Below are positions 1-985 of a stretch of 985 nt of DNA, piece by piece. The DNA is from Escherichia coli (GTDB lineage Bacteria; Pseudomonadota; Gammaproteobacteria; Enterobacterales; Enterobacteriaceae). Position 1 is the stretch's first letter. Each line of letters starts with the position of its first letter. The stretch is from assembly GCF_003334385.1 (NCBI RefSeq), contig NZ_QOWN01000138.1, one strand, 5' to 3'. Position numbers and translations under genes: made by a program. The notes beneath the pieces are model-generated. The model ran no database searches and was not told where the DNA came from. It saw only the letters and a program-made list of their open reading frames with translations.

Positions 1-985
1 GCTGATTGCCGCCAGTGTTCTCCTTGTGTGGATGTTCAGCGCCTTCCATTTCCTCCGGATCATCTTCCTGAACTTCAACCTGATACTCTTCATCGAATGT
101 TTCTTGGTATGTTGCGTCGCCCATCACCGCGCCACAATCAGGGCAGTTGCCGCCGCCGGTCTGACCGCAGGCGGTGCAGGCTTTTTCCACTTCCTGTTGC
201 GCCACTGGTTCAGGCTGTTTCGTTTCTGGCTCGTTTTGTAACGCATTTGGACTGTTTTGTTCCGCTTTTTGGTAGTTCCGTTCCGATTCATGCTGGTTCT
301 GGTTCACAGAATCGCGGGTCTGGATCCCCTTAACCCATTTCGGATCATTCGGGTCACTAATCCCTTCAACAAATTCACCACGTGATGCAGCAAGCAACTT
401 ATCGGCGTCAGGCTGGCTGATATTGGCTGCCTGCATAATTTTGTTTACTTCGTCAGCGGTAACTTTTATCGGCTCTGGTTGTTCTGAATCTTCAGCGGTA
501 TCTACATTTTGCGGTAAGCCCGTGTATGTGCCATTTTTTCGGGCAAAATATTCTTCTTTTGTGATTTCAGTGGCGCCAGCAGCCAGTGCCTTATCCAGAC
601 CAGAAAGTTTGTTTGCGCGACCGTATTTTTCTCCGTCCTTATCTGCGAAGAGGAAATAGAACGGCCCCTCACGCTCTACAGATGGTTCAGCTTCCGGCGC
701 GGTTTCATTTTTTGGGATATCAGATACCTCAGTTTCTACTGCATCAGTTTGTGTTTCTGATGACTGGAGAACATCAACAGTGCCCAGGTCTGTTTCTTCA
801 TTCTCAAACACGCCCTTTGTCGTCAGGTATTCGCAGATATATTTGTTCAGTGCTACGGGATCTTTGTGAATGTCGATCGGACGCTCACGGACAAGGCCAA
901 AAATAGTTTGGCGGTCGTAGCGAAGGGCATCAGGCTGTTTGCGCATTGATGCCGAGATACGCTTCCAGTCTTCGCGGTCGTTGTC
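1..985 (-). CDS. recE: Internal fragment, partial at both ends, of a RecE-like exodeoxyribonuclease VIII family protein (Rac-type prophage recombination exonuclease); non-catalytic central region. Codons run from 985 down to 2.
   Basis: Seen in sequence: reverse-complement frame starting at 985 is open for all 328 codons; translation has protein-like composition with acidic linker segments and a CxxC...CxxC motif. From memory, not a search: the stretches [29 protein letters not shown], ACxACGQTGGxNCPDCGAVMGDATYQETFDEE and DPEEMEGAEHPH closely match the central region of E. coli K-12 Rac prophage RecE, which lies just upstream of its C-terminal nuclease domain. The start codon must lie beyond position 985 and the stop beyond position 1. 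Confidence 0.8.
2..121 (-). other. Acidic low-complexity tract (GDATYQETFDEEYQVEVQEDDPEEMEGAEHPHKENTGGNQ), probably a disordered linker before the downstream domain
   Basis: Seen in sequence: about 14 D/E and one K in 40 residues, with no hydrophobic core pattern. This corresponds to the segment that, as I recall, immediately precedes the RecE catalytic domain. Confidence 0.5.
134..178 (-). other. Four-cysteine CxxC-x7-CxxC motif (CTACGQTGGGNCPDC), candidate zinc-ribbon or zinc-knuckle
   Basis: Seen in sequence: residues 270, 273, 281 and 284 of the window translation are Cys (tgc at 176-178 and tgt at 134-136 on the reverse strand bracket the motif), with a Gly-rich intervening loop. The spacing fits small Cys4 zinc-binding knuckles. 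Metal binding is inferred, not shown. Confidence 0.5.

Follow-up and report, generated by a model that had tools for sequence, protein, structure and literature searches.

A Qin-type prophage gene of Escherichia coli in which a RecE-homologous middle region precedes a predicted DEDDh 3'-5' exonuclease domain

The stretch of Escherichia coli DNA considered here (985 nt of contig NZ_QOWN01000138.1, called the window below) lies inside a long prophage gene for an exonuclease of the Qin ydfE type. On the minus strand, frame 0 runs without a stop codon from window position 985 down to 2, giving 328 codons, and the remaining five frames contain 7-31 stops each. This frame is a genuine coding sequence, far above what chance would give: none of 20,000 mononucleotide shuffles of the window had a stop-free frame, and the mean number of stops was 16.2. 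The window differs in 1 of 985 bases from nt 844-1828 of a 2,472-nt coding sequence (CDS) in strain E2865 (locus L001, match at 9001-9985 within the CDS at 8158-10629). The product of this CDS is the 823-residue protein WP_000048369.1. The window corresponds to its codons 282-609, and codon 610 opens with window base 1. The first-pass annotation of this DNA, made from the letters alone, had described a 328-codon open frame across the window and had placed the window wholly inside one long prophage gene, and both statements hold.

The whole protein matches the PHROG profile of the Qin YdfE-type exonuclease, phrog_2082, from end to end (residues 1-822 to profile positions 1-822 of 823, 1828 bits), and window residues 1-328 take profile positions 282-609 of 823. 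Megablast of the window against 5,426 complete E. coli genomes gave matches in 4,734 of them with a median of two copies per genome, and in 1,573 records the identity was at least 99%. Among the matches listed, all were annotated as "exonuclease" or "3'-5' exonuclease". The full gene, at a coverage of at least 80%, was present in 3,537 of the 5,426 genomes. The window was also found in the phage records HannyBb, PhiR42_1 and Tritos with 99.4-99.7% identity. A search for close homologues returned only relatives from E. coli and E. albertii, with at least 81% identity and many of them partial, and gave no clue to function. Thousands of E. coli genomes already carry an annotation of the gene, which also forms a PHROG of its own; it is an ordinary member of a known family and, as the result of a scan, routine.

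The sole Pfam domain of the 823-residue protein is PF16473 (Rv2179c-like 3'-5' exonuclease), which in the near-identical records covers residues 642-813, outside the window (E = 5.2e-67, model positions 2-177 of 177). Among solved structures, T4 DexA is the nearest in sequence (8KEL, E = 1.5e-6). The best 50 Foldseek matches in the PDB were all DEDDh proteins (DexA, RNase T, 3'hExo, ERI2/3, CRN-4, Orn/REXO2), with no match among these 50 for the N-terminal or middle domains. Residues D646, E648, D746, H796 and D801 align with the catalytic D7, E9, D119, H186 and D191 of DexA, and the five are kept in four other DEDDh-type relatives. On these alignments the C-terminal domain is predicted to be a 3'-5' exonuclease of the DEDDh (DnaQ/Rv2179c/DexA-like) type with an intact two-metal active site. 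The first-pass annotation had expected a PD-(D/E)XK nuclease domain downstream of the window; the same open reading frame carries this DEDDh domain instead.

The expectation had come from a likeness to the non-catalytic middle of RecE, and the likeness itself is well founded. BLASTP of the window against K-12 RecE gave E = 2e-60, with residues 193-327 71% identical to RecE 454-574, and window residues 2-327 matched positions 309-585 of 877 in the NCBIfam RecE equivalog model NF007259 (E = 7.5e-76). In the full protein, residues 262-627 align with RecE 278-592 at 40% identity, and BLASTP found no significant alignment past RecE residue 592; the sole RecE structure, 3H4R, spans RecE residues 605-866. 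The whole protein scored 281.3 bits with NF007259, over model positions 271-600 of 877 only, and did not reach the cutoff of 1269 bits, whereas K-12 RecE, used as control, scored 1830 bits. Pfam places PF06630 at residues 2-178 of K-12 RecE and the PDDEXK-like PF12684 at residues 615-850, and neither was detected in the 823-residue protein. Judged by these comparisons, the resemblance to RecE is real but partial, confined to the middle of the protein.

At the DNA level the resemblance is narrower. By blastn, gene nt 1425-1867 match K-12 recE with 78% identity, other recE alleles reach 86% over the matching stretch, and window positions 405-985 have no DNA-level match to recE. A junction probe of 600 nt was taken across the boundary between the RecE-like and DEDDh parts. 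Sampled matches with at least 87% identity all ran into the DEDDh domain, whereas recE alleles lost the match at gene nt ~1867, 39 nt past the window edge. Because the breakpoint lies these 39 nt outside, the window alone could not reveal which nuclease is attached to it.

The gene neighbourhood is that of a Qin-type early region. Strain E2865 and phage Tritos share one gene order: first cI/cro-type immunity genes, then ydfA-C-type small genes, DicF (for which Tritos has an annotation), dicB and ydfD, and finally the gene itself with xis and int. In strain E2865 the host genes rspB, rspA and ynfA follow int, and the best chromosomal match lies at the Qin site beside rspB; the adjacent xis of this strain is split by an ISCro1 insertion (L001:10702-13660). 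The order dicB-ydfD-exonuclease-xis-int was seen in five prophage or phage loci at three sites of the chromosome, rspB, potC and ompW, and the slot dicF-dicB-ydfD-[gene]-xis-int was occupied in L001, L002, L004, L005, L008 and L009. In Rac the order is kilR-ydaE-racC-recE-recT-ralR-xisR-intR. The gene stands last in the early-left operon, beside xis/int, which is the slot that recE/recT hold in Rac. The designation as a recE-like gene of a Rac-type prophage is therefore correct for the RecE-homologous middle and for the equivalent slot, but the dicF-dicB-ydfD neighbours give the Qin layout. The prophage of L009 (1-472; 2032-4972) has dicB, a DUF1482 (ydfD-like) gene and the DEDDh exonuclease together with a repressor of the RacR type, so that the labels "Rac-type" and "Qin-type" are not cleanly separable in mosaic early regions.

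No RecT-type partner accompanies the nuclease. Seven DEDDh-type loci, one of them the complete 46-kb Tritos genome, had no significant tblastn match to RecT (best E = 0.08), and the K-12 Rac control was positive. A PHROGs search of nine Tritos proteins, mostly hypothetical ones by annotation, found no annealase. At every locus examined the DEDDh nuclease stands without an annealase. The suggestions that recT probably follows and that the window marks a RecET recombination module of a prophage are not borne out: xis and int come next, the nuclease is a different one, and with neither a RecE-type nuclease domain nor recT downstream the recE/recT claim falls.

A genuine recE gene, with a PD-(D/E)XK 5'-3' exonuclease and recT downstream forming a RecET module, is thus hardly credible. 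The 71% identity to RecE 454-574, the NF007259 match of the window and the several database records that call the gene exonuclease VIII speak for it. However, the window is one base off a DEDDh-type gene, its last ~404 nt alone match recE DNA and do so at 78-86%, the sampled matches of at least 87% identity all cross the junction into the DEDDh domain, the RecE model gives 281 against 1269 bits, and PF12684, PF06630 and recT are absent. For every record closely matching the window this explanation is already refuted. The gene and recE (Rac, K-12 b1350) share the homologous middle, including the most conserved motif and the CxxC...CxxC motif, the large size of the protein (823 and 866 residues) and the place at the distal end of the early-left operon near xis and int. 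RecE has its own PF06630 N-terminus, its PF12684 PD-(D/E)XK 5'-3' nuclease and recT as the next gene; the protein described here has a different N-terminal domain, an extra domain with the motifs GPFY and GRANK, a predicted DEDDh 3'-5' nuclease and no recT beside it. The gene is not recE: it encodes a DEDDh nuclease, scores below the RecE threshold and lacks recT.

The DEDDh-type gene frequently goes under the name "exonuclease VIII" or "exodeoxyribonuclease VIII", as in Tritos (TRITO_27; L002/L007), in PhiR42_1 and in several NCBI partial proteins. This name has apparently spread by way of the common middle region, although the RecE model gives 281 bits where 1269 are required. The PHROG of genuine RecE, phrog_607, is itself described as "exonuclease VII", presumably a slip for exonuclease VIII.

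The segment encoded by the window was compared at two levels, predicted order and selection (Table 1). An AlphaFold2 model built from a 43-sequence alignment had a mean predicted local distance difference test score (pLDDT) of 64.9. The ratio of nonsynonymous to synonymous substitution rates (dN/dS), calculated pairwise against an allele with 86.8% DNA identity, was 0.26 over the window and 0.07-0.12 in its folded parts. The two measures agree closely along the segment, and the folded modules are under purifying selection. The window is predicted by the model to encode a scaffold of small constrained modules joined by near-neutral linkers.

Table 1. Features on the window; coordinates are window positions, residue numbers are those of the 823-residue protein.
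Feature	Position	Strand	Basis or description
Prophage exonuclease gene (intact Qin ydfE type by sequence; PHROG 2082), codons 282-609 of 823	2..985	-	Frame, near-identical CDS, profile
End (residues 282-345) of predicted helical domain 240-345	794..985	-	pLDDT 90-96, dN/dS 0.115
Acidic Thr/Glu-rich linker, predicted disordered, residues 346-383	680..793	-	pLDDT <50, dN/dS 1.06 (near-neutral)
Small predicted beta-beta-alpha-beta-alpha domain, residues 384-438	515..679	-	pLDDT 91-96, dN/dS 0.068
Second predicted disordered linker, residues 439-457	458..514	-	pLDDT <50; alignment occupancy about 3 of 43 relatives
Two predicted helices with the most conserved motif of the family, residues 458-505	314..457	-	dN/dS 0.076 (471-505)
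Long acidic segment of low predicted order, residues 506-609	2..313	-	pLDDT about 28-51, dN/dS 0.31
CxxC-7-CxxC zinc-ribbon-like motif (C551, C554, C562, C565)	134..178	-	CTACGQTGGGNCPDC, aligned to RecE CNACGQTGGDNCPDC
DNA-level match to recE (gene nt 1425-1828; extends to nt 1867 outside the window)	1..404	-	blastn

In the helical domain the model places helices at residues 286-296, 306-314 and 324-338, and the domain is weakly similar to RecE ~295-355. The next folded module, of 55 residues, carries the invariant pattern GPFY...RANK...G..EI..E...A.K, with 15 columns invariant across 9 relatives. K-12 RecE has nothing similar at that place, and a profile search with this GPFY/GRANK domain found only fragments of the same gene family and no other architecture. 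The best-conserved columns of the family, L479-P493, lie in the module of residues 458-505, where the high-identity match to RecE also starts (RecE residue 454), and the acidic segment after it is common to RecE ~490-575. The CxxC-7-CxxC motif, which sits within this acidic segment of low model confidence, is present in only 8-10 of the 43 relatives, K-12 RecE included, and is conserved where present; from the alignment it looks like an optional insert. Pfam Zn_ribbon_3 was not significant on RecE. Precomputed assignments place the newer Pfam families PF27430 and PF27432 on N-terminal fragments of the protein. Scans of the window for repeats, promoters and terminators gave short chance repeats and nothing above shuffle expectation. 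Rfam gave a single sub-threshold hit, to the Transposase-2 RNA (window positions 142-193, minus strand; 17.6 bits, gathering score 42.7, E = 0.81), which falls within the coding frame and was taken as chance.

The same scaffold is found before nucleases of different type. An exhaustive search of 1.84 billion representative proteins gave 128 relatives of the window segment at E <= 1e-3, and Foldseek against AFDB50 returned the same enterobacterial family only (Escherichia, Shigella, Salmonella, Enterobacter, Serratia, Kluyvera and Shimwellia). Among 43 long relatives, which include the query and its own cluster representative, PF06630 occurs in 23, PF12684 (PDDEXK) in 13, PF16473 (DEDDh) in 7 and a fused RecT domain in 1; the scaffold precedes either type of nuclease. 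Two hybrids illustrate the exchange of parts. In WP_000102136.1 (L005) residues 58-615 are 59% identical to RecE 50-591, PF06630 is present, and a DEDDh domain follows. In P0126 (L010:6001-8418) RecE residues 1-450 are retained at 94-100% identity and the DEDDh domain after them at 99%. The latter gene lies in a Rac-type sieB-kilR-ydaE operon, with a DUF4224 gene and an integrase gene next and no recT, and its sequence suggests a recent swap of the nuclease module between types of prophage. Both hybrids share with the gene described here the DEDDh C-terminus (98-99% identity), the RecE-common middle and the downstream order of xis or a DUF4224 gene followed by int, again with no recT. They differ in their N-terminal ~450 residues, which are RecE-type (PF06630; 59-100% identical to K-12 RecE) and not YdfE-type, and in having no GPFY/GRANK domain.

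In K-12-type strains the gene survives only as a remnant. They keep gene nt 1-767 at 99.7% identity, fused to IS2 and beside rspB (L004:5001-5768), which is the position of the Qin pseudogene ydfE. By sequence the gene is the intact form of this pseudogene: K-12 ydfE, in the dicBF operon of Qin, is the same gene in the same dicB-ydfD-[gene]-int-rspB context but is truncated by IS2 at nt 767. Because IS2 cuts there, K-12 lacks both the nuclease domain and the part covered by the window (gene nt 844-1828). The exoD pseudogene of DLP12 was considered as a further remnant and rejected, having no DNA similarity to the gene.

Such decay raises a question: could the gene in the source genome be a prophage relic too, interrupted elsewhere or unexpressed, so that the window encodes nothing functional there? 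Disruptions are common, with IS2 in K-12-type strains, IS600 or IS3 in others and a frameshift in PPompW_EH1846 (L008:2158-4625). About 1,260 of 4,800 matched genomes have no copy at a coverage of at least 80%, and a northern blot of K-12 detected no transcript reaching ydfE (PMC10448788). Against this, the window is fully open and one base away from intact 823-codon alleles, intact alleles include the phage records Tritos, HannyBb and PhiR42_1, and dN/dS of 0.07-0.12 in the folded modules means long-term purifying selection. We therefore consider a relic very unlikely.

The explanation which we prefer, with a probability of about 0.85, is that the window covers the middle third, without catalytic function, of a gene for a mosaic DEDDh exonuclease, in which the scaffold may act as a tether common with RecE, and that this gene closes the early-left operon, under repressor control, of lambdoid prophages of the Qin/DicB type. 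The mosaic consists of a YdfE-type N-terminal domain (residues 1-210), the RecE-homologous scaffold (helical domain, GPFY/GRANK domain, conserved motif and acidic tail with the optional zinc ribbon) and the predicted C-terminal DEDDh 3'-5' exonuclease domain. The literature counts ydfE as part of the dicBF operon, which is repressed by DicA and has a promoter similar to lambda pL; besides DicF and DicB, only YdfD of this operon has been characterised (PMC10448788). The protein would probably be made from an operon of this pL-like, dicBF type together with DicF, DicB and YdfD, upon derepression of the prophage or upon infection. Its C-terminal domain may then trim nucleotides off the 3' ends of nucleic acid. 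The scaffold, itself non-catalytic, would serve as a tether or targeting module as in RecE and may guide the nuclease it carries, whatever its type, to a common partner or substrate. Single-strand annealing of the RecET/Red type requires 5'-3' resection and an annealase (PMC11611040), so the protein, because of its predicted 3'-5' polarity and the missing annealase, cannot act as a recombinase of that type.

Several points weigh against this explanation. The gene content beyond the window is taken from records differing from it in 1 of 985 bases. That the window segment tethers or targets the nuclease is something we purely infer: a scan of the window alone against a local Pfam library gave no match even at E = 10, a PDB sequence search with it gave none at E = 10, and protein and profile searches found no match to the segment outside its own family. 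Pointers to the substrate differ, since the Pfam family is named after an exoribonuclease and DexA acts on DNA. The AlphaFold2 model gives a poor account of the DEDDh domain and of residues 499-637. The K-12 northern blot cited above belongs here as well, and literature searches aimed at the gene found no functional study of it.

The likeness to DexA suggests another role. The protein may be an anti-phage (superinfection-exclusion) nuclease of the prophage, like EcD/HREX, which would degrade modified phage DNA, for example DNA with 5-hydroxymethylcytosine (5hmC), from the 3' ends and spare that of the host, with the scaffold for targeting or regulation. The stand-alone DexA homologue EcD of E. 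coli digests T4 DNA and protects cells (PMC12153337), and DexA is the closest solved relative of the C-terminal domain. DicB, encoded in the same operon, is reported to protect E. coli against phage infection (bioRxiv 10.1101/708461). PADLOC added a weak hit to a generic cas-associated DEDDh model (1.8e-5), but no specific PADLOC defence model matched. The C-terminal domain has the DEDDh/Rv2179c-like family and the five catalytic residues in common with DexA and EcD. DexA (227 residues) and EcD are stand-alone proteins, whereas here the domain is fused to an N-terminal region of ~630 residues and is only about 20-23% identical to DexA. We consider an exclusion role unlikely. In the alignment W152 and D169, the 5hmC-recognition residues of DexA, stand opposite Y766 and A785, and the tetramer residue D90, whose loss defines EcD, is kept as D718. 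The loop alignment is uncertain at ~20% identity, which makes the test a weak one. The operon is silenced by its repressor, so no expression is expected in a stable lysogen. EcD is also a different gene: its cloning primers encode MIDTET...TIPETYD, termini unlike those found here, and the identity of the two genes was rejected on this ground.

For the Qin-type gene, understood as a mosaic DEDDh exonuclease, the practical consequence concerns annotation. The label exonuclease VIII/RecE is misleading, as it implies a RecET module where a predicted 3'-5' DEDDh nuclease without annealase is present. The broader consequence concerns RecE itself. Full-length RecE has been reported to enhance linear-linear recombination (PMC11611040). 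Its N-terminal and middle region, of unexplained function, occurs here before an unrelated nuclease of predicted opposite polarity, and this natural domain swap offers a comparative handle on the role of the middle region of RecE. A tentative thought, on the unlikely side, is that the scaffold may be a targeting module indifferent to the nuclease it carries, either 5'-3' PD-(D/E)XK with RecT or 3'-5' DEDDh without annealase. If this is true, the unexplained N-terminal region of RecE would work independently of RecT and of resection polarity, for example by binding to DNA ends or to a factor from host or phage, and the form with the DEDDh nuclease would play a separate part, in the early lytic phase or in exclusion.

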